Of a DNA stretch of 64,000 bases, positions 3,033 to 42,814 are shown piece by piece. The stretch's first letter is position 1; every line of letters starts with the position of its first letter. Under the pieces are notes generated by a model. That model was not told the origin of the DNA, did no database searches, and worked only from the letters and a program-made list of their open reading frames with translations. Position numbers and translations under genes: made by a program. Origin of the DNA: a virus (taxonomy: Duplodnaviria > Caudoviricetes); the IMG/VR virus record IMGVR_UViG_3300021133_000001, positions 76,181 through 140,180 of that record; one strand, given 5' to 3'.

Positions 3033-3058
3033 ATAAAATACTTAGTATTAGGGTTTGT

Positions 3059-3904: not shown

Positions 3905-3949
3905 TCTTAATTATAACTTATTATTAGTAATGAATTAAGCCAATATAGC

Positions 3950-4174
3950 TTAGCTGCGTAACTCTATCGTATCAGTGTCTTTTACGGTTAAATAAGTTTT
4001 ATCCGGAGATAAAATAACGTTTAGTATGTTATCTTTCTCTGTATAGGTAATTCCTGAAATTACAGTACTTGTACTATCTCTAACTATATAAAGTTTACTA
4101 GTAGAACCTTTAACCAAACTGCTTTTAAGAGCAGTTATAATAGCGTCTTTAGTTTTATCAATCGTAGTTGTCAT
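3950..4174 (-). CDS. Small hypothetical protein
   Basis: 74 aa ORF filling the gap between co-oriented genes; ATG start. Confidence 0.6.
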   Translation of the reverse strand: MTTTIDKTKDAIITALKSSLVKGSTSKLYIVRDSTSTVISGITYTEKDNILNVILSPDKTYLTVKDTDTIELRS

Positions 4175-4185
4175 TTTTTTATATA

Positions 4186-5619
4186 TTAACAGGAGCCGGT
4201 AGAACCATATGAAACTGAACCTTGTAATATGCTAGCGCTATTATCAGCTGCACAACCATTAAATGTAAATGGACCGCCTTGAGAATCAAAGTAGTATTGT
4301 GCACTACCGCCACATGGGGTCCAGTAGAACTCTACTTCATAATCGTCGCTATCATAGTTGTAAGTAGAATCCACACTTATCGTTAAACATGTCGAAGGCG
4401 GTGGTGTTGATGTAGTGGTGGTTGTCGTAGTGGTGGCGGCATTTACGGTTACATATATACTACCACTGCTTGTAATAGATGTATTTTCAGCAAGTCTGAC
4501 ATAACAAGTCCAAGTACCTGCATTATTTGTTTCAACAGGGTTCCAAACAAATTGATGTTGATTTGCATTTATGTTGCCTGTTTGCCAACCAGTTATATTA
4601 CCGCCGTTTTGATACCAATCAAATTGTGGGGTATAACCATCTGTGTGAGAAACTGTGCAACGTATTGCATATGGACCGACACCAGCTGTATAGGTAGGGT
4701 TACCAGACTGCCAGTTACTACCATCAAAGTATTCCATAGCTGTAACTGAAATAACAGGTGGTGGGGGTGTAGTTGTGGTCGTAGTAGTAGTTGTGGTAGT
4801 AGTTGTTGTAGTAGTAGTTGTTGTGGTTGTTACTGCAACGAAATTAGCTGTAATTGTACCGTTACCAGTAAGTGTTACTCCGGAAGTTGCATTATTTGGA
4901 CTTGCTATAGAAACTCCACCAGTGCTCGTCCAATTACTAAATACATAACCTGTACCTGCAGTAGCATGAATAATATTTGGCCCAGTTTCTGACTGATTAG
5001 ATGTGTTATTACATTGAGTACCGTTTATACAAGCTGTTGAAGAACCGCCACCGTTTGCAGCTACCATAGTAATACTATATGTAGCAGGCGTGGTTGTAGT
5101 AGTGGTAGTGCTACCAGCATAATTAGCTGTCAAAGTAACTGGCCCGCCATTAATGGTTACGTTTGTTGAGGTACTGGAAGCATTAGCAAAAGTAGCATCT
5201 CCAGAAGGAGTAGCTGTCCAACCTGTAAATGTACCTGTACCGGTTGCAACTAATGAACCTACGTGACCGACTTGTACACCAAGTATAAATGTACTACCGT
5301 CCATAGTACCGTTAACGACAGTTACAGAATACAAAGGCGGGTTAGTAGTGGTAGTTGAAGTAGTGGTAGTTGTAGAAGTAGTGGTAGTTGTAGAAGTAGT
5401 GGTAGTTGCATTAATATCTTTAAAAACATACCTCATATCAGTACCACCCACTTTATAACCTGTGTTATAGCCTAAATCTCCACCACCAGCTGTTTCATAT
5501 CTTTGAGCAAAATCCTGACCGTTTACTTTATAACCAGTATTAGACCCAGCAGTCCCTACTCTTGCCATAAAAACACTGTCAAGATCAGTACCGTTGGAAA
5601 GTTTGTAGTTCGAGGCCAT
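4186..5619 (-). CDS. Putative fibre-tip adhesin: N-terminal repeated attachment motif, Ig-like/beta-sandwich modules separated by poly-Thr linkers
   Basis: N-terminal (N/T)GYKVxGxD repeats; four Thr-rich runs, one ending in PPPP; two related ~75 aa modules (FxxWT...A/SxTxVTxxGxxTxTANY/F); Ig-like YAIRC...FDWYQNG...NAGTWTCYV. Start overlaps the stop of the upstream S74 fibre gene (TAATG). Confidence 0.7.
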   Translation of the reverse strand: MASNYKLSNGTDLDSVFMARVGTAGSNTGYKVNGQDFAQRYETAGGGDLGYNTGYKVGGTDMRYVFKDINATTTTSTTTTTSTTTTTSTTTTNPPLYSVTVVNGTMDGSTFILGVQVGHVGSLVATGTGTFTGWTATPSGDATFANASSTSTNVTINGGPVTLTANYAGSTTTTTTTPATYSITMVAANGGGSSTACINGTQCNNTSNQSETGPNIIHATAGTGYVFSNWTSTGGVSIASPNNATSGVTLTGNGTITANFVAVTTTTTTTTTTTTTTTTTTTTTPPPPVISVTAMEYFDGSNWQSGNPTYTAGVGPYAIRCTVSHTDGYTPQFDWYQNGGNITGWQTGNINANQHQFVWNPVETNNAGTWTCYVRLAENTSITSSGSIYVTVNAATTTTTTTTSTPPPSTCLTISVDSTYNYDSDDYEVEFYWTPCGGSAQYYFDSQGGPFTFNGCAADNSASILQGSVSYGSTGSC

Positions 5620-8600
5620 TATCTAGCTTCAAGTACTTTAACTCTTTCATTTAATGTCTTAACCGCTTCAATTAATAGCGCTGTAAGACGGCCGTAATCA
5701 ACACCTGTAGCTTCTCCTGTATAAACATCTTTACTTACTACTGTAGGTAATACTTCGTTTACGTCTTCAGCAATTAAACCAATATCATTTACCACATCTT
5801 TATTATTCCAATCAAAAGTGACGCCTTGTAATTTTGTTACAGTTTCAATTGCACTTACAATAGGTGATATATTAGTTTTCCATTTACGAGAAGAGCTTGT
5901 ATTATATGTACCTGCTGTAACTGTTCCTGCTACGTTTAAATTACCTGCATTACTACCATTTCCATTGTTTTGTATATCAACTAGACCGTCATAGTTGATT
6001 TTCATTCTGATTGTGTTTGCACCACCACCTAAATCCGGACCAGTAGCAAATCTTATGTAACCGCCAGAGGCAGCACCTGCATTAAGACTTAATACGCCCG
6101 GTACAACACTACTATTACCTGCAAAGTCAATTTGCGCGCCATTACTAATACCGTTGCTTTGACCACCTGTGACTGTTAATACCCCGCTATTATTTATATA
6201 ACGTAAACCTACATAAGAACTTACTATAACGCCGTCATCTGTTTGTATACCGTGTATAGATAGGTTACTACCATCCCATCGCATATAACTACTAGAGTTA
6301 CCGATATCAAACTTAGCTGTACCGCTAACATCTCCTAACCAGAAACCAGTACCAGAACCGTAACTTGATTTACCTTGATATACTGCATTTCCACTATTAT
6401 TAGCTATAGCAACACTACCATTAATAGTTAATGTAGATGTGTCCCAAGTTAAGTTGCTACCTAATGAGAATTTACCAGTATTTTCAGCATAGAAACCAGC
6501 AACTCCATAGCCACCGGAACCAGCCATTAAATATGTACTTGCTATTGTAATGCCACCTACTGAACCGCCAGTTAGACCTAAGCTCTTACCTGTTTGTCCG
6601 CTTTGTAAAGCAGAGTTAGCATTGTTAATAGACGTTGAAGTTACTTGCGTACTACCACCAACATAAATCGTGCCTTTTACTGTTAAAGTTGAACCATCCC
6701 AGTATATTGAATTTGCACCAGTACCGTTAAATGCAAAAGTACCATCATTCTTTATATATGTGTTAAATGCACCGCTAGTATAATAACCCATATAGGTTTG
6801 ACCTAAAAATAAACCGCTACCAGAAGGAGCTGCATCAATTACTAGCTTACCGTTACTATCGGTCTTTACTTTACCGGATAATGTGGATACGTTACTATTA
6901 GCTGTATTAGCAGTACCTAAAGCTGTACTTGCATTACTATTAGCTGTACTTGCGTTACTATTAGCTGTAGCAATGTCTGTAGCAGCTTGACCTCCAGTTA
7001 TATTAATAGCACCATTAATAGTTAAGTAACCGTTTGCCCAGGTTAAGGAATCTCCGTTAGGACCAGATAGGTAAAAGTTACCATTATTGGCCATATACGT
7101 TTTCCATGCACTACCATTATAATAACCTAAATTATTAGAGCCTAAATATAAACCTGCAGTGCTTGGACTTGGAGTTTTTACGATAGCACCTGTACTATCA
7201 GTGAATACTGCAGAAGCCGTTGGTGAAACCGCGTTATTAGCAATAGTTGTAGCGGTTGATGTACTTACTGCAGCAGAACCGTCTGTTAAATATAAGCTAC
7301 CTTTAAGTGTCAAGCTAGAACCATCCCACCATAAATAGTTTCCTGTAGCACTAAGTGTATAACTACTTGTTAAGCCTGTACTACCTAATAACATATTAAA
7401 TGTAGGGGTAGAAGTACCAGCTTTTTTGTACCATTTAAATGAATCGCCTAGATAAAGTACTGCTTGACTTACATTTGAACGATCTGAAGCAGCTGTAGTA
7501 CCATTTAAAAAGAATGGAGTATCTGCTGTACCAGCTGCACTTGGAACACCGGTATATAATGTATTTTGATACATACCCACACCAGCAATAGAGCCGTATG
7601 TAGCAGTAATACCACCAGATACGTTCATGTAGTTTGTTCCGCCTGCTCTAAAATACTTTAAGGTATTACCTAATGTAAAATAAGTACGATCTGAAGTGCC
7701 GTTGTCGTAGGAACCGTTTAAATAGAATGGTGTGTCAGCAGAACCAGCAGCTGAAGCAACACCTGTATATACTGCACCTGTAGCAATACCAACACCACCG
7801 ATGGAACCGTATGTAGCTGTTATACCACCAGATACGTTCATATAATTTGTACCACCCACTCTAAAATATTTTAGAGTGTTACCTAAAGTCATGTATGTAC
7901 GATCTGAATAACCATCATCATATGAACCGTTAACGTAAAACGGAGTGTCTGCTGTACCAGCTGCACTTGCAACACCTGTATATATTGCACCAGCTGCAAT
8001 ACCAACACCACCGATGGAACCGTATGTAGCTGTTATACCACCAGATACGTTCATATAATTTGTACCACCGGCACGGAAATACTTTAACGTATTACCTAAA
8101 GTCATATAGGTACGATCTGAATGACCGTCATCAACTGTACCGTTTACATAAAATGGAGTATCTGCTGTACCAGCTGCACTAGCAACACCAGTATAAATAG
8201 AACCTTGTGTTAAACCAACACCACCAATAGAACCAGCATTTGCAAATATAGTACCAGATAGTTGTAACTGACCAGTATCTCCTCTATATAAGAAACCGTT
8301 GTTTGGATAGTTACCTACAAAGAAATAAGCATTACCATCAGTGTAGTTACCCATCCACACTCCATGTGAACCGGATGTGCCTGGCCAATCTGCATTAGCT
8401 GTACGAATAAAACCAGCAGAAAGGTCCCCTACTGTACCTAATACAATACCTTGAGTAACTGATACGTCTTGTGCTAATAATAAGTCTGTAGCTACACTTG
8501 CGAAGTTTTCACCAAATGAAGCCCAATCAGCTGTATCTACTCCTGGTATACCCCAGCCTGTATAGCCTGAGAACGAATCGCTACTTAAAGTGGTACTTCT

Positions 8601-9215
8601 AGCTATATAATAATTAATTTTACCACCACCAGAATAACCTGCAACGTCAACCCGAGAAGGTGTATCGTAGTAAATGTAATTTGGACCTCTATAATAACCT
8701 GTATAAACTAAGCCAGGTCCTGGGTTACCATTATTTGCACCAGGCGGTCCTGAAAAACCTGATTTACCGCTTACACCACTAAAGCCTGAACTACCAGTAA
8801 AGCCTGAAAAACCTGAATTACCGTTAAAACCAGAATAGCCTGTTGAACCTTGAAAACCAGAAAAGCCTGAATTGCCTTGAAAACCAGAATAGCCCGTTGA
8901 ACCTTGAAAACCAGAAAAGCCTGAATTACCGTTAAAGCCAGAAAACCCTGAACTACCAGGAATACCTTGAGGTCCAGCTGCTGTACTTGCTGCACCTTGT
9001 GCACCTGTTGATCCTTGAGCGCCTGGTGCTCCAGAAAAACCAGAAATACCTGTACCACCTGGGCCTATACCTTGAGTGCTTAACCAAGCTAACGTCTGTG
9101 CCAAAGACATTCTGTATGTTTTTGGATCTGTTTCGCTCTTAGAAACTGGTATTGAAATATCCTGAGAAACTGTTCCAGTTGGAACTGGTGGTAAATCTGT
9201 AATTTTAAGAGGCAT
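5619..9215 (-). CDS. Long tail fibre with N-terminal Gly-X-Y tract, 71-aa tandem repeats and C-terminal peptidase S74 intramolecular chaperone
   Basis: C-terminus TSSSRKWKTNI...LQGVTFDW...IGLIAEDV...[15 protein letters not shown]; repeated WDGSxLTxxG fibre motifs; GFS/GYS triplets near the N-terminus. Confidence 0.9.
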   Translation of the reverse strand: MPLKITDLPPVPTGTVSQDISIPVSKSETDPKTYRMSLAQTLAWLSTQGIGPGGTGISGFSGAPGAQGSTGAQGAASTAAGPQGIPGSSGFSGFNGNSGFSGFQGSTGYSGFQGNSGFSGFQGSTGYSGFNGNSGFSGFTGSSGFSGVSGKSGFSGPPGANNGNPGPGLVYTGYYRGPNYIYYDTPSRVDVAGYSGGGKINYYIARSTTLSSDSFSGYTGWGIPGVDTADWASFGENFASVATDLLLAQDVSVTQGIVLGTVGDLSAGFIRTANADWPGTSGSHGVWMGNYTDGNAYFFVGNYPNNGFLYRGDTGQLQLSGTIFANAGSIGGVGLTQGSIYTGVASAAGTADTPFYVNGTVDDGHSDRTYMTLGNTLKYFRAGGTNYMNVSGGITATYGSIGGVGIAAGAIYTGVASAAGTADTPFYVNGSYDDGYSDRTYMTLGNTLKYFRVGGTNYMNVSGGITATYGSIGGVGIATGAVYTGVASAAGSADTPFYLNGSYDNGTSDRTYFTLGNTLKYFRAGGTNYMNVSGGITATYGSIAGVGMYQNTLYTGVPSAAGTADTPFFLNGTTAASDRSNVSQAVLYLGDSFKWYKKAGTSTPTFNMLLGSTGLTSSYTLSATGNYLWWDGSSLTLKGSLYLTDGSAAVSTSTATTIANNAVSPTASAVFTDSTGAIVKTPSPSTAGLYLGSNNLGYYNGSAWKTYMANNGNFYLSGPNGDSLTWANGYLTINGAINITGGQAATDIATANSNASTANSNASTALGTANTANSNVSTLSGKVKTDSNGKLVIDAAPSGSGLFLGQTYMGYYTSGAFNTYIKNDGTFAFNGTGANSIYWDGSTLTVKGTIYVGGSTQVTSTSINNANSALQSGQTGKSLGLTGGSVGGITIASTYLMAGSGGYGVAGFYAENTGKFSLGSNLTWDTSTLTINGSVAIANNSGNAVYQGKSSYGSGTGFWLGDVSGTAKFDIGNSSSYMRWDGSNLSIHGIQTDDGVIVSSYVGLRYINNSGVLTVTGGQSNGISNGAQIDFAGNSSVVPGVLSLNAGAASGGYIRFATGPDLGGGANTIRMKINYDGLVDIQNNGNGSNAGNLNVAGTVTAGTYNTSSSRKWKTNISPIVSAIETVTKLQGVTFDWNNKDVVNDIGLIAEDVNEVLPTVVSKDVYTGEATGVDYGRLTALLIEAVKTLNERVKVLEAR
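7500..8236 (-). repeat. 213-bp (71-aa) coding tandem repeat, about 3.5 copies
   Basis: Equivalent positions at 7588, 7801 and 8014 are 213 bp apart; unit GSIGGVG...YTGVASAAGTADTPFY.NG...SDRTY.TLGNTLKYFR.GGTNYMNVSGGITATY. Confidence 0.9.
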
Positions 9216-9246
9216 TGTTAATATTATTTAGTTGTTATGTATAGTA

Positions 9247-9717
9247 CTATCCATTATAATTTAACAGTAAATAGTTCGGGTTTTTCGTTTCTAAAGCTAT
9301 TATTTGACTGTTATCTGGACCCCAAGCTTTCATTTTAACTAAGTGTACTTCCTCAAAAGCATAAGGTTCAGCATTTGCAATAGGATTTTTAGTAAACTTA
9401 GGTAAAACATTAGTTACTGTGAAGGAATATATATAAGGATCGTAATGATCTGGACCTACATAAGCAGATATGCTAATAGTTAATGGAGAGTTACTATTAG
9501 GCACAGTATATACAAAATCTGATCTACAATCATCACCACTGTAATTAGAAGAAACAAATGTATTAACTTTTGTTACTACTTTATCAGGAAAATGATATAT
9601 AACTTTACTTAAAAACTGAGAACCTGTTAGCGGTACAAATATAGGTTGAAACGTTATAGTTAAAGGTGTATAACCTGAAACCGATGAAGTACTGTCAAAT
9701 TGGTAATTAATATTCAT
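9247..9717 (-). CDS. Hypothetical virion protein (beta-rich, PKD/Ig-like N-terminus)
   Basis: 156 aa; SGYTPLTITF start resembles PKD-type GxxPLTVxF; lies in the structural gene run. Confidence 0.6.
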   Translation of the reverse strand: MNINYQFDSTSSVSGYTPLTITFQPIFVPLTGSQFLSKVIYHFPDKVVTKVNTFVSSNYSGDDCRSDFVYTVPNSNSPLTISISAYVGPDHYDPYIYSFTVTNVLPKFTKNPIANAEPYAFEEVHLVKMKAWGPDNSQIIALETKNPNYLLLNYNG

Positions 9718-9774
9718 ATTATACGGCTACAATGTTGTGGTAATTAATATTCATATTATACGGCTACAATGTTG
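9701..9774. repeat. Exact 37-bp tandem duplication spanning a stop/start junction
   Basis: tggtaattaatattcatattatacggctacaatgttg at 9701-9737 and again at 9738-9774. Confidence 0.95.
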
Positions 9775-11315
9775 TTTCCTGTATCTGTTACAATTGGTAC
9801 TACTGCTTCATTTACTAAAACTTTACCTAGAGTTGCTTCTTTAGTATTGTAGCTTATAATCTTGAAATTTTGATTGGTGTAAGCTACAAAATCTATAATA
9901 TATGAAGTAGTGTCTTGATTATACGAAATGAGAGGTGGTTCAATATAAGTTAATAACTCTTGATCTAGGTTAACCGAACTAATACCTCTATTATAAAAAA
10001 AATAGCTATAATCTGTATTGTTAGTAGGGAATATTCTTACTCGTTTACCAGGATGATTAATATCGTACTGATATAACACAGGAACTACTAAAGCAGAAGC
10101 AGAATTGGTAGTAGCAACGGCAGCTGATAACAATAAACAAGAAGTTATCTTTTTATTTGTTTCATCATACCAATTACCACCATAATACACAGCAGCTGTA
10201 TCGTTAATTTTAATACCAGTTAAAGAAGCACTTGAAAGTATACGAGTAGAAACGTTTTGATGATAATCTAACGTTAAAAAGTCTTGATTGGTTGTAATGA
10301 TTTGACCGGTTGTGTAGTCAAAGTTAATCTTCTCAAATATGGTGTAACCGCTTAACTCAAATACTAATGTATCAAAAAATACCTCAAAGTTTTTAATGTT
10401 ATTGGCAGATAACTGAGCATATATAGCATGTTCATTGATATGCTTGTTATATATTGCAGAAAGTATATCGGTAGCAGTATAAACTATACCATCAACTGTT
10501 TTTACCCATAACTCTCCATATGCATTTTGCATATTATAAATAGTGCGGTCTCCAGTAGGTAATTTATATAATGCATATTGATTACCATACACATCTGTTT
10601 GCCAGCTGTATAGCTCTTTATTAGAATTAATTAAAAGCTTACTAACACGAGTATCAATATCAAAATACCGTAACCAATCTTCTTCAGTAAATTTGTTTGT
10701 AGTTAACCAGATGTTTTTCTGATCTCCAGTCCAAAATTCGTAATCATTATGTACATCGGTAACACCATTACTGTCTAGTTTGGTTGTTTCAAAGTTAGAT
10801 TGGTAAGGAATGAATTTTTGATAAGTATCTGAACCGACTACTTGACCGTCAAAAGCAGTACCAGTATTAGAGGCTTTTAACCAACTTAAATTCTGCAAAT
10901 GAGTTATAATATTATCTTGATCATTTTCAGTTAAGCCTCTACCTTTGTTAAATTTGTTTGGATCTACATACCTATATGTATTACCAGGTGTAATTTCGTT
11001 AATGTTAATTAACGGTGTTAAATTTTTAGCTAAATAAGTAGAAACACCTAAATTATTAGGAGTAAAATAACCACCTAGCTCGGCTTTTGTCTTAATGTTG
11101 TTACCGCTTTGTGGTAATGTAGCAACTGTAGGATAGTATCTATTAGCTAAGTTGCTCCAAGGTGCAAGAGGTGTTATCTCAGCACCAATATATCCAGTAG
11201 TCGTACCAGATAGTACATATTCTTTATTACCTAAATACTTTTGAGATAATGTTACTAACTGAGCATCAATTTGCCCAGAAGTTGTGTTTACATCGACTTG
11301 TGTTGCAGATAGCAT
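9756..11315 (-). CDS. Hypothetical virion structural (baseplate-wedge-like) protein
   Basis: 519 aa, Asn/Thr/Tyr-rich, coupled to fibre genes; no recognised catalytic motif. Confidence 0.65.
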   Translation of the reverse strand: MLSATQVDVNTTSGQIDAQLVTLSQKYLGNKEYVLSGTTTGYIGAEITPLAPWSNLANRYYPTVATLPQSGNNIKTKAELGGYFTPNNLGVSTYLAKNLTPLININEITPGNTYRYVDPNKFNKGRGLTENDQDNIITHLQNLSWLKASNTGTAFDGQVVGSDTYQKFIPYQSNFETTKLDSNGVTDVHNDYEFWTGDQKNIWLTTNKFTEEDWLRYFDIDTRVSKLLINSNKELYSWQTDVYGNQYALYKLPTGDRTIYNMQNAYGELWVKTVDGIVYTATDILSAIYNKHINEHAIYAQLSANNIKNFEVFFDTLVFELSGYTIFEKINFDYTTGQIITTNQDFLTLDYHQNVSTRILSSASLTGIKINDTAAVYYGGNWYDETNKKITSCLLLSAAVATTNSASALVVPVLYQYDINHPGKRVRIFPTNNTDYSYFFYNRGISSVNLDQELLTYIEPPLISYNQDTTSYIIDFVAYTNQNFKIISYNTKEATLGKVLVNEAVVPIVTDTGNNIVAV

Positions 11316-17226: not shown

Positions 17227-17880
17227 CTATATAGTTTGCCTTAAACGCTGCATTGGATATACAGGTACATCTAGTCTGCTTATAAAGAATACTAAAGTTA
17301 ATCTTTCAGTTGTATCTTCCCCTACATATTCATTAGCTGTATGATATAAATGGGAGTCAAATGAAAGCAGTCTATTAAATTTATTTTTAATAATAATAGA
17401 ATCAGTAAATTGATTGTTATTTTGCTGTCTAAGAGTATTGATATCCCCTTTATAATTCTTAGGGTCTGCAATAAATTTACGCTTTTCTTCTCCGTTAATT
17501 AATTGTGTACCAGGTACTTTAGGTTCACATATAGAAGTACCTGAATTTTCATCTCCATCCGGGTTAAGATACACAATACCTGTTATAATATCATTATCTT
17601 TATGTACCCAACCAGATTTAAAATCCTTGTTTACTTTTTGAAAATATGCTTTAGCAAAGTAATTTTTTATATCCGCAATAGGGTAATATATAGAAAGAAA
17701 CTTAAAAATAGTATAATAATGTAAATTTGCGTTAATATTTATTAATAAATCCGATCTGGTTCCAGGCCACATTTTGTTGGGGTCTGGCGAAAAGTTTTGT
17801 ACTAATGCAAACTCTCTTACTTTGTAAGGATCTTCAAAGAATCCGTCTATAACTGAAGTAGGAATAATATAATTTTGCAT
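17227..17880 (-). CDS. 2OG-Fe(II) oxygenase (DUF6445-like)
   Basis: VIDGFFEDPYKVREFAL, WPGTRS, GWVHKD (HxD), GIVYLNP, SGT, NKFNRLLSFD..LYH (distal His). Confidence 0.85.
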   Translation of the reverse strand: MQNYIIPTSVIDGFFEDPYKVREFALVQNFSPDPNKMWPGTRSDLLININANLHYYTIFKFLSIYYPIADIKNYFAKAYFQKVNKDFKSGWVHKDNDIITGIVYLNPDGDENSGTSICEPKVPGTQLINGEEKRKFIADPKNYKGDINTLRQQNNNQFTDSIIIKNKFNRLLSFDSHLYHTANEYVGEDTTERLTLVFFISRLDVPVYPMQRLRQTI

Positions 17881-17897
17881 AGTTCTATGATAAGTTA

Positions 17898-19274
17898 TTA
17901 TTTTGAATAGTCAATACCGTATAGGTCTAATTCTTGTCGAGCTAATTCTGGTGTAATTTTATCTATACCTGCAAGTATCCAATTATAGAGAGATGCCCCT
18001 ACACTGCCATAATAGTAATCATATTGCAATCCACCAGGTACTGTATGTTTACATCTTTCTAATAGATCAGCCACAAAAGGTGTTATAGTTTTGCCTGATT
18101 TTATATAACGCCAAAACTCGGAATCATCTCTACCGCCTTGATAGTGTAGTACTAAGAAATCTAGTACATCATCATATAATTTACACATTTTTTTATTATA
18201 ATATTTTCTGTTAACGTCAATTAATGTACTCGTCGCGTCCGGTCTTAAATATTCCATAAACGTTAATAATTGTACTATTGTGGTGTGAATAGAAGTAGCC
18301 TCTAAAGGCTCAGCAAATGCTGCAGCTAGACCTAACACTAAGCAGTTACTTTCCCACAAAGTTTCGCACCTACCGCTATCAAAGCTTATATGTCTTATAG
18401 GCTCTATTTTTCTACCCAATGCAGTTTCGACCTCTTGCTGTGCTTGATCAGGTGTAATGCAGTTTGATTGATAAACATACCCGCAGCCTATTCTTTCTGT
18501 GGTAGGTATTTGCCACATCCACCCCGAACTTAATGCATGTGCTATGGTTACCGGTCTTGGGCGGTTATCTTCATCTATAGGTAATAAAAATGGCATTGCT
18601 CGGTCAACAGGCAAATGAGAAGCATATGTTTTCCATTTAACTTCTAGAGCATTCATTAGTACTCTCTTAAAACCGGTACAGTCCACGAAAAGATCTCCTT
18701 CAAGTTCTTGGCCGTTGTTTAAACGTATTTTTGTTATTACGTTCTTTTCGTTAATCCCCACATCATTAACAACAGCATCAATTACTGTAATATCGTCTTT
18801 AAGTACTTTTTTAAAATGTGCACCTATTTTAAATGCATTAAAATGATACGCAGAAATAAGAGATATATTACCTTCAGAGTAAATTTTACCAAATTCTGAG
18901 GCTTTATGCATACCTTCTTTGCCTTCTTTAATAAAAGATTTTAAGAAATGTATATCAGGGCTTGATGTGCCGGTTCTCGTGCCGTCAAGCGGTGCAAAGT
19001 AACTATCTCCAGCTGGTGTCCAGTTTTTATGTAATATACCTAGTTTAACTGTCCCGTCAACGTCGTTTAAAAAGTTAGATATAGTAGTACCAGTTTTAAA
19101 CCAGTGATTTGATAGTACGTTTACCAGCATTCCAGTTGAGCCTTCTCCAGCACCAATAATACTAATTTGACTAGACTCAACAACAGTGACTTTGTGCTTA
19201 CCTAATTGTGCTTTAGTAAAAAATAAAGCAGCAAGCCACCCAGCTGTACCACCACCCACTATTACTATGTTCAT
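17898..19274 (-). CDS. Flavin-dependent (tryptophan-halogenase family) halogenase
   Basis: IVIVGGGTAGWLAA (GxGxxG), IIGAGEGS, VKLGI (candidate catalytic Lys), DLFVDCTGF, GWMWQIP (WxWxIP), FAEPLEATSI. Confidence 0.92.
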   Translation of the reverse strand: MNIVIVGGGTAGWLAALFFTKAQLGKHKVTVVESSQISIIGAGEGSTGMLVNVLSNHWFKTGTTISNFLNDVDGTVKLGILHKNWTPAGDSYFAPLDGTRTGTSSPDIHFLKSFIKEGKEGMHKASEFGKIYSEGNISLISAYHFNAFKIGAHFKKVLKDDITVIDAVVNDVGINEKNVITKIRLNNGQELEGDLFVDCTGFKRVLMNALEVKWKTYASHLPVDRAMPFLLPIDEDNRPRPVTIAHALSSGWMWQIPTTERIGCGYVYQSNCITPDQAQQEVETALGRKIEPIRHISFDSGRCETLWESNCLVLGLAAAFAEPLEATSIHTTIVQLLTFMEYLRPDATSTLIDVNRKYYNKKMCKLYDDVLDFLVLHYQGGRDDSEFWRYIKSGKTITPFVADLLERCKHTVPGGLQYDYYYGSVGASLYNWILAGIDKITPELARQELDLYGIDYSK

Positions 19275-20595: not shown

Positions 20596-21663
20596 TTAGT
20601 GTACGAAAGTAAATATAGCTGCAGTTAATAAAAGTAAGAACGCCCAAGTGCCTAATGCTTTGTAGTATGTAGATAAAGGCGTACCAAAGTAACGTTTACC
20701 AATCATAACACATTCATGCATAGGTGTTAATAAATACCCACAATAATCTAATGCAAAGAACCATAACAGATACTGTTTACCGAATACTGTTGTAGCTAAT
20801 ACAGTTAATGCGGCAAATTTACCGTCACTACCCATACTAAAGCTAGCAGCAAATAGTAGCATACTAATAATATACATACCACTAAATGTATGCGGGTCTA
20901 AACCCCAGTTTCTCACTGCGTGTTCAATCCAGGCTCTATGTTCTTGCATATAACCCGATGTAAAAAAGATAACACCAATTAATGCAATAGTAGTCCAGTT
21001 GACATAACTACTAATCTTTTTCCAGCTATAGGTCTTAGTAATATACAGATAATAAGCTAATAGAGTACCGAAGATAGGAAACACTAACTCTGGGCCTTCT
21101 CCTCCAAGTAGCATATACGTAAGAACAGCAGCAATAAACGGTATTACGTTTTTGATAAAGCTACTAGCACCGAGATTTTCTTGAGGTGTAATTTCTATCT
21201 CATCTTCTTTAATAACAAAGAATAAATAGTAAAAAATAAATGCAGCACTAACAGCTATTAACGGCCATAACATTTTTAACCATACTGCATATGTAATACC
21301 GAACGCTGCCATTGGTAATATTACTGGTTTCTCAATAGGAGACCACATATAATAGTGATGAGTAGTAAGAAAGTCAATAGGTCCAAGCTTTTGACGTGCT
21401 TTTACATCTTTTTCCTTTGAGGCTGTTGCAGTATCTAGTATACCTGCACTAACTGTACTTCTACCTTCTAGAGGTAATATACCGCTAATAAGACTAATAA
21501 CAGCAATAACTAACTTGTTACTTTTAAGTTTAAATTTTAACCATCCATACGTACATCCGAATAGGTTATGCTCTTTGGCAATACCCGCTACTACCATAAT
21601 AGTAAAGAGTACAAAGAGATAGATTTCGTCTCCGAGATAAAAACGGTCTAAAAAGTCACTCAT
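20596..21663 (-). CDS. Multi-pass membrane transporter (ion-transporter superfamily-like: CitM/ArsB/DUF401 type)
   Basis: About 9-11 hydrophobic segments; ISGILPLEGR, THHYYMWSPIEKPVILP and GYLLTPMHEC; the SPxH/TPxHxC-type re-entrant motifs recall IT-superfamily permeases. Confidence 0.7.
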   Translation of the reverse strand: MSDFLDRFYLGDEIYLFVLFTIMVVAGIAKEHNLFGCTYGWLKFKLKSNKLVIAVISLISGILPLEGRSTVSAGILDTATASKEKDVKARQKLGPIDFLTTHHYYMWSPIEKPVILPMAAFGITYAVWLKMLWPLIAVSAAFIFYYLFFVIKEDEIEITPQENLGASSFIKNVIPFIAAVLTYMLLGGEGPELVFPIFGTLLAYYLYITKTYSWKKISSYVNWTTIALIGVIFFTSGYMQEHRAWIEHAVRNWGLDPHTFSGMYIISMLLFAASFSMGSDGKFAALTVLATTVFGKQYLLWFFALDYCGYLLTPMHECVMIGKRYFGTPLSTYYKALGTWAFLLLLTAAIFTFVH

Positions 21664-21677
21664 AGCTATATTTTATA

Positions 21678-23312
21678 TTATTTCTTTACAATAGCCAGGT
21701 AAAAACCATTCCACCACATATCAGGATCTTCTAAATCATTTAATAATATCTTATCGTATATTACTTCTAAACCAGCATCAGCAATACCGCGTTTAGCACC
21801 GCTAACTACTCCATCAAAATTTGCATCGTCAAATATAAGAACAGCTTCATCTACTAGCTTATCTGCAAAGTACATTATAGCTTGATAGTTAGCTTCTTCG
21901 CTATGATCTGCATCATAAAAGAAAAAGTCTATATTACCAATATCAGACTTGTCGACTTGTAAAAAATGGCTATTGAATACCTTTAAAGTGTTACTACCTT
22001 TATACTTTTTAGCATTCTCAATAAATTTTTCTTTTGAGGATTCAAGATCAACTTTACCGTTAGCAGACTTGGTTTGTTCTTGCCAATGATCGACTGCATA
22101 AGCTCTAAGATTGTTATCTTTAATAGTAGCACAAAACGTACCACCGTTTAACACACCCACTTCAAGGTAACCTGTCGATATTTTACCAATACCGTTTAAT
22201 AGCTGTTTCATTTTGTCTGAAGTAATACCTTCTACAGTATCTCCTATTGGTTGATTAACAGTGTCTATTAGTAATTGAGCAACCTTTTCAACCTTCTTGT
22301 TGTTTTTATTACCTTTAGCTCTCCATACTTTTGTACAGTAATCACAATCCCAACAATTAAATTTACATGTCTTAATCTTTTGACGCCAAGCATTTATAGG
22401 TTTTTCTATTAAGTTAGTATCTTCAATATAAGGCTTAAACCCGTCAAATAATAACTCTTCTTTATTAGCGAATCTACGAATAATGTCCATAGTTTCGTTT
22501 AAACGGTTACTATTCTCTCTACCGTGCATTTTAATCGTATCAATACCTAACTCTAAAAACTCTAACCAATCTTCTCTCCAAGGTGGAAAGTTAGCATTAG
22601 TTAACTGTACAGCTGAATCTTGAGTCTGCCATTTAGGACAACTAACTCTACTAATAGGGTCTGTAAAGTACTGATTACCTGTTGTTCTAGTATTATTAAA
22701 GTGGTAATGCTCATCCATAACAGGACACCCACCTACACAACCTTCATTAGCTAATAAAGATAGCTTGATACCGTATTTGTCTTTAACTCTTTTTATCTCT
22801 CTAAGTCTATCATGATCTCTCATGAGTACTCGATCAAGATTAACATAGTTAAAACCAGCCTGTGCTAAAGCTGCTACTTCTCTTGGTTCTTTTACACCTC
22901 TAAGAATAGTGTTCTTGACAAATAACTCTGGAAAGTTATGTTTAACTTGCTTAGTTAACATCCAGTGAGTGTGTGGTAACGTGCAAGATCTTATACCAGC
23001 GTCATACAACGGTTTAAAGTTCTTTATCCAGGTTTCTAAGTTCTTTTGATCAGCTCGTACTGATATATTGTTAAACGTAGCTGATACAGTTATACCAGTT
23101 TCTTTCTGTACGTATAAAGCTGTTTCAATAGCAAACTGATGTGCTTCTTTTTGTACAAACACATCACCCATAGCATCCTGTAAAAAAGGATCTATTCGAC
23201 AAGTAAAATAAATGTCGTAAATGTAATCCTTATACTCCTTACAAAACGCTAAAAATGAATAGAACTGTTGTTCTGTAAGTTTAGGATTAAGCGGTATGCT
23301 AAATATCTTCAC
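21678..23312 (-). CDS. Fusion of a U32-family Fe-S domain (N-terminal ~340 aa) and a class I SAM methyltransferase (Methyltransf_24-like)
   Basis: VNLDR, LLANEGCVGGCP...RVSC, IDTIKMHGRE (cf. U32 LKIEGR), KTCKFNCWDCDYC; C-terminal YLEVGVLNGGTF, AVDHW, IDFFFYDADH, VLIFDD. Confidence 0.8.
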   Translation of the reverse strand: MKIFSIPLNPKLTEQQFYSFLAFCKEYKDYIYDIYFTCRIDPFLQDAMGDVFVQKEAHQFAIETALYVQKETGITVSATFNNISVRADQKNLETWIKNFKPLYDAGIRSCTLPHTHWMLTKQVKHNFPELFVKNTILRGVKEPREVAALAQAGFNYVNLDRVLMRDHDRLREIKRVKDKYGIKLSLLANEGCVGGCPVMDEHYHFNNTRTTGNQYFTDPISRVSCPKWQTQDSAVQLTNANFPPWREDWLEFLELGIDTIKMHGRENSNRLNETMDIIRRFANKEELLFDGFKPYIEDTNLIEKPINAWRQKIKTCKFNCWDCDYCTKVWRAKGNKNNKKVEKVAQLLIDTVNQPIGDTVEGITSDKMKQLLNGIGKISTGYLEVGVLNGGTFCATIKDNNLRAYAVDHWQEQTKSANGKVDLESSKEKFIENAKKYKGSNTLKVFNSHFLQVDKSDIGNIDFFFYDADHSEEANYQAIMYFADKLVDEAVLIFDDANFDGVVSGAKRGIADAGLEVIYDKILLNDLEDPDMWWNGFYLAIVKK

Positions 23313-24009
23313 TCTTGGTCTTAGTCTCGAGTTTCAACTGGTCCTTAGCAACATCATCAATATAAGCTAAATCTGTTCCTGCTGAACTCATTAACTGTTT
23401 CATTGTTGCTTGACCGATTGCATCAAGTCCTTTACCTAAAACCCCATTATATTTAATAGCAAGACCAAGTGTTTCTTTAACATCTGGCATCGGCATCATT
23501 AATATTGAGTCTAAGTTACCTTGACTAATACGTCCAATAGTGTTTAAGTCCATTGCAGCCTGTTTAGCCATTCTCGTTATCCAGTACTCCCGTTCTAATT
23601 GTTCATTATGAGTACCGAATTGTTGTAACGCTTCTAAGTTAGGTACAACTGCTTTTACCATGTTAACAAAGTTATTAAGTTCATTTTGAACCATAACTTC
23701 TTTTTTGTCATACATATGAATGTCCCAATCTGCTTGATCAATATCAACTTGAATAAGTTGTTTCTTTAACTCGTCTGGTTCATTTGCAATATCGCGTTCT
23801 AATATTTGCTTTTCTATCATGCGCTTTCTGCGCTGACGTTCAATTTGCTTTTGTGAACCAATACGAGTATCAATTTCTAGTAAAGCTTGACGCACTCTAC
23901 GGTAATCTGTTACTTGTGAATTTACAACAAAGTAACGAGATTGAAAATCAGACATGCCGAGAGAGTTTTCGTTCTCATCGACGAATTTAATAATATCATT
24001 ATATTCCAT
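23299..24009 (-). CDS. Coiled-coil hypothetical protein
   Basis: 236 aa, charged and helical; overlaps the U32 gene start by 14 nt. Confidence 0.75.
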   Translation of the reverse strand: MEYNDIIKFVDENENSLGMSDFQSRYFVVNSQVTDYRRVRQALLEIDTRIGSQKQIERQRRKRMIEKQILERDIANEPDELKKQLIQVDIDQADWDIHMYDKKEVMVQNELNNFVNMVKAVVPNLEALQQFGTHNEQLEREYWITRMAKQAAMDLNTIGRISQGNLDSILMMPMPDVKETLGLAIKYNGVLGKGLDAIGQATMKQLMSSAGTDLAYIDDVAKDQLKLETKTKSEDI

Positions 24010-24012
24010 ATA

Positions 24013-24678
24013 TTAGAACTGGTAACCGAATTTTACTGCACTTAATCTTGCGTTTCTTGTATCGTTCCAATGACCTCTACGCACTGCGAGGTCTTTTGGC
24101 ATTTCTATACCGAAAGTCATTTCACGTTCATAATGCAAGTCGTCTATTGTCGACAAGCTATCTATTAAAGTATGTATTCTGGCATGCGTGTCTGCATCGT
24201 AATCAGGTCTCGGATAAAGAGTATCTGTATTCGGTAGACCTAACTTTCTATCTTCCATCTCTTGTTCAAGGTGTAACTTAAGAGATTTTTTCATTAATGA
24301 AACAAGATGCGGTGTTAAATCTACAGCATCTGCAGAAACAGCTGCAAAGTTTGCGTTGTTTAAGTATACTTTTGTTTTTCTTTTACCTTTAGCTAATTCA
24401 TCTGGATCAGAAGGTAAACCTTCAACATCGGAATAAGCTTTACGGTAAGGACGAGTTTCTCCATAATGCTTGCATGCAGAAAGTTCATATTGAGTAATCT
24501 CAACTAAAGGTATATATTTTTTTACTCCTTGAAATGGAAATGCTTCCATAGAACTTACTGCAGCGTATGCGGTGTCAGTTGTAAATTCAACGACATTGAA
24601 GTTATCAAATGATGTAACTACTCTCATACCGTCTATGGTAGGTATATATCGAAAGAATTTTGCAATGTAGTATGACAT
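24013..24678 (-). CDS. Hypothetical protein
   Basis: 221 aa; 3 nt from the next gene in a compact operon. Confidence 0.7.
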   Translation of the reverse strand: MSYYIAKFFRYIPTIDGMRVVTSFDNFNVVEFTTDTAYAAVSSMEAFPFQGVKKYIPLVEITQYELSACKHYGETRPYRKAYSDVEGLPSDPDELAKGKRKTKVYLNNANFAAVSADAVDLTPHLVSLMKKSLKLHLEQEMEDRKLGLPNTDTLYPRPDYDADTHARIHTLIDSLSTIDDLHYEREMTFGIEMPKDLAVRRGHWNDTRNARLSAVKFGYQF

Positions 24679-24691
24679 GGTTTAAAGTTAT

Positions 24692-25756
24692 TTATATATT
24701 AGTACCCATTGTTCCACCTAATAGTACTGCACTACCTGTAGCACAACCGCCAGAAGAAGTACCTCCATGACCTTTCGGTTGCATAGTTGAACCACCTGTC
24801 ACTAAAGTATCACTTGTATAGTATTGTTTAAAAGAGTTATTATTTTGCACCCCATTGTAGTTACCAAGTTCATAGCCCCAATCCTGACCTATTTCGTAAT
24901 TTTCTTCTCCACCGTTGTCTCCACGGTTAATAGTAGAAATATAAGACAAAGTAACGTCGTTAAATTTATAATAATTTACACTAGCTGTATTGCCGCCACC
25001 TGCATTATAACCAACACCCCACTTACTAGACAAACCGTGATTAATACCATCTAGACCGTTTAGATACGTCCATGTACCAGTAGTCCAAGTATCAGTTGAC
25101 CATGCTAAAGATGCTGAAGAGCTACTATTAGCAATAGTACCGTAATATTGACCGAAAAAGCCTGCGCCGCTTCCTGCTGAACCACCAGACGTTACACCGT
25201 TGTAACCAACTGTACCTGCTGCAAACATTGTATCAGTTATTGTACAAAATTTATCTGTAGAAGCAGATGAACCGCAGCAAATATATACAGCTGTATTACC
25301 AGCGTTCATTAAGGTTTTGCTCTGCATACGATTATTTTTCATGTTCCAGTTATCAGTATGTGTTCTTAACGCCTCAGTTTGCATGTTCATTGATGAACAA
25401 TACGAAGATACTCCTTGAAATCCTGCATCAGGCCAAACATATGAATAATAATCACTAAAACCTACATCTATATACGCAGCACCGTTATCCATCATATCTC
25501 CTAAGTTAGTTGTAGTATCTGTGTTATGCATTGTACGGTTAGTGTTTCTCCAAGGAGAACTATTTTGATAACCACAGTGCATATACCCACGAGTGTATAT
25601 TGTGCGATAAAGAAATAAGTTATTATTAGGGTTTGGATTAATATCAACGCCTGTTGCCATCCAGCTATATCCGTCAAACACATATGTATTGTAACCGTTC
25701 GGGTTTAAGTACCGAGTGCCTGTTGATGGGGATGTTGGAAAGCTTAATACTGACAT
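24692..25756 (-). CDS. Kelch-like beta-propeller protein, paralogue B
   Basis: N-terminal LSFPxSPSTGxRY...Y.(F/W)DGYxW; about six 40-45 aa units beginning GY/VY-x-x-x-G and ending in xDT-type turns; colinear with the neighbouring gene. Confidence 0.7.
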   Translation of the reverse strand: MSVLSFPTSPSTGTRYLNPNGYNTYVFDGYSWMATGVDINPNPNNNLFLYRTIYTRGYMHCGYQNSSPWRNTNRTMHNTDTTTNLGDMMDNGAAYIDVGFSDYYSYVWPDAGFQGVSSYCSSMNMQTEALRTHTDNWNMKNNRMQSKTLMNAGNTAVYICCGSSASTDKFCTITDTMFAAGTVGYNGVTSGGSAGSGAGFFGQYYGTIANSSSSASLAWSTDTWTTGTWTYLNGLDGINHGLSSKWGVGYNAGGGNTASVNYYKFNDVTLSYISTINRGDNGGEENYEIGQDWGYELGNYNGVQNNNSFKQYYTSDTLVTGGSTMQPKGHGGTSSGGCATGSAVLLGGTMGTNI

Positions 25757-25757
25757 A

Positions 25758-26825
25758 TTATATTGTAGTACCTAGTACTCCTCCTAAGATTAAACAGCTA
25801 CCTGTACCACAAGCACCAGAAGACGCGCCTCCGTGACCTTTCGGTTGCATAGTTGAACCACCAGCTACACATGAGTCTGTTGTATATGAAACTTTTGTAG
25901 AGTTATTTGTTTGTCCACTTCCGTTGTAAGAACCTATAGTATAACCCCAATCCTGCCCTACTTGACAGTTTTCTTCACCACAAGTCTCTGGACGACTTAT
26001 ACTTGATACGTATGTTCTAGTTACATCGTTAAATTTATATAAAGTTGATGAACCAGCATATGAACCAGGCGCATTATACCCGTATCCCCATTTACTCGAC
26101 AAACCTTTTGGTTGTCCGTCTGTACTACTATAACCTGAAAAAATATTTTGACTGGTCCATGTTTCTGTACTCCAGGTAAAATAACCACCACCACTATTAG
26201 CGTTTATAATACCGTAATATTGACCCCAAAAACCACTAAGACCACCAGCTGTACCACCAGAAGATGAGCTAGCAGCTACTAAGTTAGCTGCTATCATAGT
26301 ATCTGAAGCTGTAATAAATTTATCTGTTGAAGAATTATTACCACCCGTAATGTATATTGCAGTGAGATCAGCATTCATTAACGCTTTACAGTTTTGACGA
26401 CTTACCGTTGTATTCCAGATACTATTATACGATCTCAAGCTTTCTGTTACCATACTCATTGACGAAGTGTAAGCAGAGGTTCCTTGCACACTACCTGAGT
26501 CGTTAAATACATACGTGTTGTAGTCGCTAAAACCACCGTCAATATACGATGCACCGCGGTCCATCATATCCCCTAAGTTAGTTGTAGTGTCTGTTACATG
26601 TAAAGTTCTATTAGTATTTCTCCAAGGAGAACTATTTTGATAACCGCAGTGCATATACCCTCTAGTGTACATTGTACGATAAAGGAAAGGGTTAGCGTTA
26701 ACCGGGTTAGTACCTAATGATTGACCAGTTGCACACCAGGTATAACCGTCCCAAAAGTAAAAATAACCGGTATAGGCATTATACCGGTTACCAGTTGAAG
26801 GAGAACTTGGAAAGCTAAGAGCCAT
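25758..26825 (-). CDS. Kelch-like beta-propeller protein, paralogue A
   Basis: Shares FLYRTxYTRGYMHCGYQNSSPWRNTNRT, TDTTTNLGDMMD, GLSSKWG, YKFNDVT, GEEN, GQDWGY and GGSTMQPKGHGGxSSGxCxTG with 24692..25756. Confidence 0.7.
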   Translation of the reverse strand: MALSFPSSPSTGNRYNAYTGYFYFWDGYTWCATGQSLGTNPVNANPFLYRTMYTRGYMHCGYQNSSPWRNTNRTLHVTDTTTNLGDMMDRGASYIDGGFSDYNTYVFNDSGSVQGTSAYTSSMSMVTESLRSYNSIWNTTVSRQNCKALMNADLTAIYITGGNNSSTDKFITASDTMIAANLVAASSSSGGTAGGLSGFWGQYYGIINANSGGGYFTWSTETWTSQNIFSGYSSTDGQPKGLSSKWGYGYNAPGSYAGSSTLYKFNDVTRTYVSSISRPETCGEENCQVGQDWGYTIGSYNGSGQTNNSTKVSYTTDSCVAGGSTMQPKGHGGASSGACGTGSCLILGGVLGTTI

Positions 26826-42781: not shown

Positions 42782-42814
42782 TATAATTAAATAATACGTA
42801 AGTAATTGTATAAC

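Follow-up and report, generated by a model that had tools for sequence, protein, structure and literature searches.

A remote U32-like barrel fused to an O-methyltransferase in the tail-fibre region of a T4-like cyanophage genome

The fusion gene and its two domains

The stretch analysed here (the window) comprises 64,000 nucleotides (nt) of viral DNA, positions 76,181 to 140,180 of the IMG/VR record IMGVR_UViG_3300021133_000001, and the gene under study, at 21678..23312 on the minus strand, encodes a protein of 544 residues in which a U32-like domain, a Cys-rich motif and an O-methyltransferase are fused. The window comes from a viral record of 140 kb, of the marine, T4-like cyanophage kind; encoded in it are a T4-type terminase, a tail sheath, fibres with collagen repeats and an S74 chaperone domain. 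The fusion gene is located in the tail-fibre region, among fibre genes, in a tightly packed co-directional run; its first 14 nt are shared with the end of the upstream gene, and another 14 nt separate its stop from the next gene. The open reading frame (ORF) is open across all 544 codons and begins with GTG, a start backed by homologues that begin with MKIF or VKIF at the same position.

Unless stated otherwise, features are given in window coordinates and lie on the minus strand. The U32-like TIM barrel takes up residues 1-312 (22377..23312) on the basis of the AlphaFold2 model, Foldseek, VIA-align and hhalign. Within it, residues 189-225 (22638..22748; N-E-G-C192-x3-C196-P...E201-H202...C225-P-K-W) are the counterpart of the U32 iron-sulphur (Fe-S) ligand motif, and residues 261-266 (22515..22532) correspond by hhalign and conservation to the U32 K-I-E-G-R block. 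A family-specific C-x3-C-x2-C-x2-C motif follows the barrel at residues 316-326 (22335..22367; alignment and model), and residues 360-544 (21681..22235) form a class I O-methyltransferase domain of the cation-dependent type, as seen from Pfam, motifs and Foldseek. The motifs quoted in an initial annotation of this DNA were all recovered, namely NEGCVGGCP (residues 189-197), VSC (223-225), KMHGRE (261-266) and CKFNCWDCDYC (316-326). So was the complete class I methyltransferase that it had placed behind the Cys cluster, as Methyltransf_24 matches residues 383-496 above its gathering score.

The fusion protein belongs to PHROG phrog_1458 (E 1e-165) and its N-terminal domain alone to phrog_36869, both of unknown function. 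On searching with tblastn, relatives were found in 126 phage records (123 of Synechococcus or Prochlorococcus phages and 3 of Ralstonia phages), and in all 126 the gene is named 'hypothetical protein'. Clustered at 90% identity, the homologues fall into at least 1910 groups. For the N-terminal domain (residues 1-345), an exhaustive HMMER search gave 340 clusters at 50% identity, most of them standalone proteins of 330-450 residues; the full-length homologues are 37-97% identical to the fusion protein. No paper connecting U32 with cyanophages, or dealing with phage U32-like genes, was returned by a literature search. There is no Pfam or NCBIfam entry, PHROGs gives 'unknown function', and we found no description of the gene family or of the gene cassette to which it belongs.

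The AlphaFold2 model of the N-terminal domain, built on an alignment of 50 homologues, is a TIM barrel with a predicted local distance difference test (pLDDT) value of 92.4 and a predicted template modelling score (pTM) of 0.91. When this model was compared with the PDB by Foldseek, the U32 peptidase Mk0906 (5d88) ranked first (E 5.7e-8). VIA-align over 48,161 chains gave 5d88_A a Z of 17.1 with a root-mean-square deviation of 3.1 Å for 226 of 247 residues, the runner-up fold being methylenetetrahydrofolate reductase (Z 13.1), followed by a long tail of generic TIM barrels. The top match outside the family in the viral structure library BFVD is a phage 'Peptidase' (E 4.8e-12; next TIM barrel 6e-5), and the nearest ESM-Atlas clusters consist of viral proteins, PF01136 being present in 20% of their members. 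In these structural matches, to Mk0906 and to the phage U32-type 'Peptidase', sequence identity is roughly 11-19%.

At the sequence level the relationship was recovered by profile-profile comparison. The 50 family members were aligned by hhalign with 34 genuine U32 proteins (30 from spirochaete genomes, found via PF01136, and four E. coli paralogues), with a score of 47.7 over 259 columns (Prob 77%, E 2e-5), as against 11.8-20.6 for control alignments of U32, one reversed and 20 column-shuffled. The alignment pairs LDRxLxRD with U32 LAREL, N-E-G-C192-x3-C196-P with HGA-x-C-x4-G-x-C, C225-P-K-W with C-R-W, and K-x-H-G-R with K-I-E-G-R. It may be noted that the 34-sequence U32 alignment is needed, as hhalign of the family profile with the single E. 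coli UbiU or UbiV sequence was not significant. No Pfam match of usable strength was seen for residues 1-340 even at E <= 10, and nothing in NCBIfam; the N-terminal domain, used as a single sequence and as a 50-sequence profile, found nothing usable among PDB sequences, with de novo TIM barrels appearing at E 0.004. The relationship to U32 is a remote one, at superfamily rather than family level. We conclude that the N-terminal domain belongs to the U32 superfamily as a distant branch, beyond the Pfam family in its present limits, with a remodelled metal-ligand set. What stands of the U32 domain first proposed is a TIM barrel closest to Mk0906 and homology at the remote, profile level; membership of PF01136 does not. 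As a side observation, E. coli TrhP itself, searched by phmmer, has no solved structure at E <= 0.001, Mk0906 included, which makes Mk0906 a distant yardstick.

Two other assignments of the barrel were tried and rejected. For a xylose isomerase-like barrel (AP_endonuc_2, as in the Joint Genome Institute (JGI) label 'sugar phosphate isomerase/epimerase'), PF01261 reached E 0.085 over 44 residues only, no member of this fold is among the 50 best structural matches, and AP endonuclease matches in the viral library are at E >= 9e-4. For the radical S-adenosylmethionine (SAM) superfamily there is no match to PF04055 or to an NCBIfam radical SAM model, and the CX3CX2C at residues 316-323 comes after the barrel and not after strand 1.

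Seven Cys (C192, C196, C225, C316, C320, C323 and C326) are invariant in the 50 N-domain homologues, down to 22% identity, and D33 likewise; E190, E201, H202, K261, G264 and R265 are conserved at 90% or above. By hhalign, C192, C196 and C225 align with the U32 cluster ligands Cys 1, 2 and 4. The ligand motif of the U32 [4Fe-4S] cluster is CX6CX15CX3/4C, from which UbiU and UbiV also deviate (PMC6747719). The spacing in the phage protein is C192-X3-C196-X28-C225, so that the canonical four-Cys pattern is missing; this does not exclude an Fe-S cluster, because UbiU and UbiV depart from the pattern too. The initial annotation had pointed out both the departure from the classical spacing and the additional four-Cys motif, and both are borne out: CX3C stands in place of CX6C with ligand 3 absent, and the extra motif is invariant across the 50 homologues. 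This CX3CX2CX2C motif is without counterpart in the aligned U32 proteins and has a pLDDT of 88-95 in the N-domain model. From ligand counting we infer that one of the C-terminal Cys may complete the U32-type cluster, while the other three may hold a second metal site, either a [4Fe-4S] cluster with an open iron or zinc.

The C-terminal domain matches Methyltransf_24 at 38-41 bits against a cut-off of 26.3 (E 2.7e-9 to 4.5e-10) and Methyltransf_3 weakly (E 0.057). SAM motif I (YLEVGVLNGGT, with AVDxW) has E384, G386, G390 and D408 at least 90% conserved among 21 fused homologues. The same holds for D467, D495, D496 and N498 in FFYDADHS and IFDDAN, the metal motifs, which we take to be of the metal-binding D-x-D...D-N type. 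On searching the full-length model with Foldseek, the matches of methyltransferase size are the catechol-type O-methyltransferases Rv0187 (6jcl), 3tfw, 8c9s/8c9t, 7cvu and TomG (5n5d), with E 2e-7 to 7e-7. Among PDB sequences the sole methyltransferase picked up by the family profile is YrrM/TrmR (5zw3), at a non-significant E of 0.65, and in this weak match the metal motifs align with FIDAAK and ITDNVLF. Judged from these motifs and from the model, the domain looks like a catalytically intact, metal-dependent O-methyltransferase of the catechol, CCoA or TrmR type. Two outlying homologues (P0125 and P0127) are without it.

The cassette and its variants

Directly upstream of the fusion gene, at 23299..24009, lies the gene for partner A, a protein of 236 residues (phrog_1409, E 9e-53) that is predicted to be helical and has no Cys motif. 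Partner A was found in 126 phage records with an organism breakdown identical to that of the U32-like gene, usually directly upstream of it; such upstream homologues are seen in P-HM2, S-RIM12, an uncultured phage, Ralstonia phage RP31 and a metagenome-assembled genome (MAG) of the Leptospirales. An ESM Atlas search with partner A gave no named relatives. The initial annotation had proposed a single-chain methoxylation enzyme, possibly with two Fe-S clusters; the protein is not self-sufficient, as the partner gene always accompanies it.

On the other side, 14 nt downstream of the fusion gene, the gene at 20596..21663 encodes a polytopic membrane protein of the DUF401/TIGR00529 kind (PF04165, E 1e-7). 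All 12 phage records with a DUF401-like gene also carry the U32-like gene; the two adjoin in RP12/RP31, are near each other in S-H25 and MbCM1 and lie 56 kb apart in S-CAM4. A literature search returned nothing useful on DUF401. In the Leptospirales MAG the DUF401 gene comes directly after a standalone U32-like gene and its product is 41% identical to that of the window (E 2e-82); this copy is chromosomal, and the genes around it look cellular.

Further upstream in the window, a protein of 221 residues (24013..24678; T4-like GC 352 family, by weak homology) takes the position of cassette member B. The B family is common to P-HM2, S-RIM12, the uncultured-phage contig L043 and the Leptospirales MAG, and the window protein matches the B profile weakly (E 0.0016, 35 columns). 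Two tandem phrog_1417 'propeller' paralogues of 354 and 355 residues (24692..26825; E about 1e-65) head the cassette, and phrog_1417 homologues are also found upstream of it in P-HM2, S-RIM12 and L043. The core unit is partner A with the U32-like protein, often with DUF401; the O-methyltransferase has been added to it, typically in cyanophages. The cassette is present in more than 100 phages and in at least one bacterium.

In the Leptospirales MAG (CBDEUV010000002.1, locus 1883-10180) A, B, the U32-like gene and DUF401 follow a gene for a protein of 1511 residues with DUF6519, DUF2341 and Laminin_G_3, which echoes the large fibre and surface proteins beside the phage cassettes. A search for related loci seeded with one protein recovered only this MAG itself.

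A split form, in which the U32-like protein and the methyltransferase are encoded by separate adjacent genes, occurs in three uncultured-phage contigs (L043-L045). The split methyltransferase is 26% identical to the fused domain (E 2e-21), the pair is preceded by a radical SAM gene, and a DUF401 gene is found one gene further downstream. In L043 the radical SAM gene overlaps the start of the U32-like gene, with a glycosyltransferase family 2 (GT2) gene, a UDP-galactopyranose mutase and a TylF-like methyltransferase nearby. In three longer relatives (P0210, P0254 and P0135, the last with 579 residues, at 1558-3297 of L048) the U32-like domain is C-terminal, behind an N-terminal region of 190-230 residues. 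The extra regions of these and other longer relatives have no Pfam match.

A U32-like gene is also found on a 109-kb metagenome contig (L010, 5588-16719), in a cluster with a split transketolase, four radical SAM genes, a GT2 gene, two nucleoside diphosphate (NDP)-sugar epimerases/dehydratases, a PIG-L gene and a UDP-glucose dehydrogenase; this cluster looks like an undescribed sugar-modification pathway. Searching the radical SAM neighbours against NCBIfam gave generic similarity and no subfamily above its cut-off.

Some other genes of the phage may be listed. Its record has seven Radical_SAM ORFs, unusually many for a phage; one lies in the window (62532-63800, minus strand, 422 residues) and the others at 15.7-29.8 kb, with four of them within 25.5-29.8 kb, and at 53.9 kb of the record. 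Five GT2 glycosyltransferase matches are located at 3059-3904 (minus strand) of the window and at 41.4-44.6 kb and 62.6 kb of the record, which gives the phage a capacity for glycan tailoring that is separate from the cassette. At 17227-19274 on the minus strand, 1.3-4 kb downstream of the cassette and in the same orientation, a full-length gene of the flavin-dependent tryptophan-halogenase family (PF04820, E 7e-86) stands beside a DUF6445 gene resembling 2-oxoglutarate/Fe(II) (2OG-Fe(II)) oxygenases. A protein of 358 residues with an NTP_transf_2 nucleotidyltransferase domain is encoded on the plus strand at 42806-43882, between the terminase and tail sheath genes. In the Ralstonia jumbo phage RP31, whose host is a plant-associated bacterium, an ORF of 170 residues with collagen-like repeats (L049, 5393-5905), which matches the collagen fibre genes of the window, is found 2 kb upstream of the genes for A, the U32-like protein and DUF401.

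A proposed two-step reaction and its alternatives

The characterised U32 proteins (UbiU/UbiV, TrhP and RlhA) are Fe-S, prephenate-dependent hydroxylation factors (PMC6747719, PMC10990095, PMC6599085), and the three systems they serve hydroxylate a carbon of an aromatic or pyrimidine ring independently of O2 (PMC10990095, PMC6599085). In two of these three systems TrmR or UbiG subsequently adds a methyl group to the new hydroxyl. Hydroxylation followed by O-methylation is the best-supported mechanism for the fusion protein, because the characterised U32 systems hydroxylate, two of them then O-methylate, and the fused methyltransferase is of the catechol/TrmR class. By this analogy, and tentatively, we propose a two-domain tailoring enzyme that would carry out U32-type hydroxylation and then O-methylation together with partner proteins. 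Domain 1 (residues 1 to about 330) would be a TIM barrel descended from the U32 [4Fe-4S] family, or sharing an ancestor with it, that kept three of the four canonical ligands (C192, C196 and C225), lost the third and gained C316-x3-C320-x2-C323-x2-C326; it would hydroxylate an sp2 carbon of the substrate. Domain 2 (residues about 360-544) would then methylate the new hydroxyl using SAM. The logic would be that of TrhP with TrmR, from U34 through 5-hydroxyuridine (ho5U) to 5-methoxyuridine (mo5U), and of UbiU/V with UbiG, from phenol through catechol to guaiacol. The enzyme would work with the obligatory helical partner encoded just upstream, and in some lineages, that of the window phage included, the DUF401-type membrane protein encoded just downstream would join in. 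Fe-S binding, the roles of the seven Cys, prephenate as oxygen donor, hydroxylation as the chemistry, the sequence of the two steps and the kind of substrate are all inferred from this analogy. As candidate substrates one may consider RNA, an aromatic lipid associated with the membrane, or aromatic side chains in the fibre proteins encoded nearby.

Several results weigh against this proposal. PF01136 (gathering score 22.4 bits) does not match the N-terminal domain even at E <= 10 nor any of the 50 homologues at E <= 0.01, the Leptospirales copy being likewise without a match; in the phage record and in the Leptospirales genome this search finds no match at all, while it finds U32 in 34 of 41 genomes of the Leptospirales' phylum plus E. 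coli. The probability given by hhalign does not go beyond 77%. The U32 ligand Cys 3 is absent, with Ser221 at the aligned position. In TrhP the residue E162, eight residues before Cys 1, is essential, as are C170 and C177, which are Cys 1 and Cys 2 (PMC6599085); E162 is not conserved, the aligned residue being Ser185, and the family has instead an invariant Glu190 two residues before Cys 1. The full-length AlphaFold2 model (pTM 0.60) has no confident domain arrangement, and both Cys regions fall below a pLDDT of 50. That the two segments lose confidence together in this shallower model would be compatible with a joint metal-dependent substructure, at which it hints weakly. No U32 protein has so far been shown to be a hydroxylase in vitro (PMC10990095). 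Also, there is no methyltransferase within 8 kb of the homologues in the Ralstonia phages (RP31), in the Leptospirales MAG and in the loci L046 and L010. Because such methyltransferase-less homologues exist, methylation would be an add-on and not the core function. The L046 and L010 homologues are found amid glycosyltransferases, sugar-nucleotide enzymes and radical SAM genes, where aromatic hydroxylation has no obvious need. Relatives of this sort, lacking a methyltransferase and lying in sugar-nucleotide and radical SAM clusters, leave room for chemistry other than hydroxylation.

Such chemistry is the subject of an alternative that we consider unlikely but still worth weighing, in which the barrel would be an Fe-S enzyme of another type (dehydratase, reductase or radical-type) acting on a sugar, sugar nucleotide or glycan, with the methyltransferase methylating a sugar hydroxyl and DUF401 handling a lipid-linked or exported glycan. 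Standalone homologues do lie inside clusters of GT2, UDP-glucose dehydrogenase, NDP-sugar epimerase/dehydratase, PIG-L, split transketolase and radical SAM genes (L010, L046/L047), L043 has its GT2, mutase, TylF-like and overlapping radical SAM neighbours, and the record of the window phage has its own 7 radical SAM and 5 GT2 ORFs. Methyltransf_24 proteins are moreover frequent in glycan clusters. The cassette is, however, not beside sugar genes in the window or in most cyanophages, and the nearest structures of the methyltransferase are catechol-type enzymes for aromatic hydroxyls, not sugar O-methyltransferases. The spacing C316-x3-C320-x2-C323 is that of the radical SAM motif, but it is met behind the barrel instead of behind strand 1, and the radical SAM models of Pfam and NCBIfam do not match. 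With lower probability still, the pair could be a phage version of the TrhP/TrmR tRNA pathway, in which wobble U34 (or an rRNA pyrimidine) would be hydroxylated and methylated to mo5U, retuning decoding for the phage genes. Action on RNA pyrimidines in two of the three characterised U32 systems, the JGI label 'O-methyltransferase YrrM' on several homologues and the yrrMNO operon as a precedent (PMC6599085) would fit this, and TrmR/YrrM (5zw3) is the only solved methyltransferase picked up by the family profile, though at an E (0.65) that is not significant. Yet the gene lies in a late structural operon amid fibre genes, no RNA-binding domain was detected with Pfam, and the obligatory helical partner and recurrent membrane-protein neighbour are not called for by RNA modification; the lack of tRNA genes in the window and the 140-kb record neither supports nor excludes an RNA substrate.

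The remaining two alternatives do away with U32-type modification chemistry in the barrel. We give little credit to the view that the N-terminal domain is an inert, zinc-held scaffold docking the methyltransferase onto fibre or assembly proteins, so that the methyltransferase alone would do the chemistry. Close-spaced CX3CX2CX2C is typical of zinc knuckles too, the zinc-finger protein 2ctd is among the weak profile matches (E 0.24), and partner A resembles a helical, assembly-type protein. However, standalone N-domains without a methyltransferase are commoner than the fused form, the invariant polar residues of the barrel (D33, E190, E201, H202, K261 and R265) suggest an active site, and three of the Cys line up with residues proven to be Fe-S ligands. 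The name of family U32 comes from collagenases, and a true peptidase that trims or matures the surrounding collagen-like fibre proteins would suit a gene placed amid collagen-repeat fibre genes in the window and, in RP31, 2 kb from a collagen-like ORF upstream of the cassette. This is the reading that we find hardest to credit. U32 is without known peptidase catalytic residues, and those members that have been characterised are Fe-S proteins on which hydroxylation depends (PMC6747719, PMC10990095). In the phage family it is seven Cys that are invariant, the joining of a peptidase to an O-methyltransferase would be hard to make sense of, and the bacterial and sugar-cluster contexts have no collagen genes.

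If the hydroxylate-then-methylate proposal is carried as far as a protein substrate, it becomes a good deal more speculative. Partner A, the fusion protein and DUF401 might then form a fibre-tailoring cassette for O2-free hydroxylation of Tyr or Trp in aromatic-rich Gly-X-Ser or collagen-like fibres followed by a methyl cap, a version to which we assign a small chance. The fusion would here be a seven-Cys, two-metal-site U32 variant taking Tyr through 3,4-dihydroxyphenylalanine (DOPA) to 3-methoxy-Tyr, and the cassette would work in company with the flavin halogenase and the 2OG oxygenase encoded nearby. If true, a protein would for the first time be known as a substrate of a U32-type enzyme, and such an enzyme would for the first time have a role in a phage.

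U32 is a large and poorly understood family with three systems of known role, none of which has been reconstituted in vitro, and its proposed chemistry, with prephenate as oxygen donor, is new biochemistry. The phage family offers a natural U32 variant with an altered ligand set, an extra Cys-rich motif and a strictly co-occurring partner, and the fusion joins the U32-like domain directly to the enzyme that would consume its product. The protein is small, soluble and abundant, and comes from cultured phages (S-RIM2, Syn19, P-HM2, S-CAM4 and the Ralstonia phages RP12/RP31). The family may therefore serve as a handle on the U32 mechanism, and it points to an unrecognised tailoring reaction in more than 100 sequenced ocean cyanophages. 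A fibre protein or a component of the host envelope as substrate would connect the reaction with host recognition, and RNA as substrate would connect it with the way in which the phage controls decoding.

Comparison with known systems

Mk0906 of Methanopyrus kandleri (5d88), the only U32 structure found in the PDB searches, has the TIM-barrel fold in common with the phage domain at 11% identity, but with its 247 residues it consists of the barrel alone and lacks both a methyltransferase and the Cys-rich motif at the C-terminus. What is known of U32 structure thus rests on a single divergent archaeal barrel. With radical SAM enzymes the phage protein shares a barrel fold and an invariant CX3CX2C, and radical SAM genes are often near genes of the phage family; it differs in that the motif follows the barrel in place of strand 1, that a fourth Cys is present and that the best structural match is U32.

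UbiU and UbiV, which act with UbiT and UbiG in O2-independent ubiquinone biosynthesis, are U32-type and partner-dependent like the phage protein; they carry [4Fe-4S] clusters and function in a complex. They act on a membrane-bound phenol, the new hydroxyl of which is subsequently O-methylated with SAM. One of the cluster ligands of UbiV lies outside the canonical motif, and by analogy the same may apply to the phage protein. The phage partner, on the other hand, is a helical protein without Cys and not a second U32 protein. The phage cassette has no SCP2 (UbiT-like) protein, its membrane partner is a polytopic one of the DUF401 type, and its methyltransferase resembles catechol O-methyltransferase (COMT) and not UbiG. 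The fusion, besides, occurs in phages of cyanobacteria, organisms that make plastoquinone.

The parallel with TrhP and TrmR, drawn already in the initial annotation, remains apt. TrhP (YegQ; in B. subtilis TrhP1/TrhP2, that is YrrN/YrrO) and TrmR (YrrM) convert tRNA U34 to ho5U34 and then to mo5U34. Compared with TrhP, the phage protein has no PF01136 match, has CX3C where TrhP has CX6C, has lost Cys 3 and the counterpart of Glu162 and has the extra CX3CX2CX2C; compared with the pathway as a whole, it has an obligatory helical partner, a membrane-protein neighbour and a location in a structural operon, with no sign of RNA binding. Kept in common are Cys 1 and Cys 2 of the U32 motif, as well as, on the phage side by analogy, what would be a logic of hydroxylation followed by methylation. 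In both, a U32-type barrel is coupled to a COMT-like, metal-dependent O-methyltransferase, by an operon there and by fusion in the phage. In B. subtilis yrrM, which encodes a COMT-like O-methyltransferase, shares its operon with trhP1 and trhP2 (PMC6599085). The phage methyltransferase is of this TrmR/YrrM class, which makes the yrrM-yrrN-yrrO operon (PMC6599085) a fitting parallel, and the split form of the phage pair points, like the fusion that it matches, to a functional link between the two domains.

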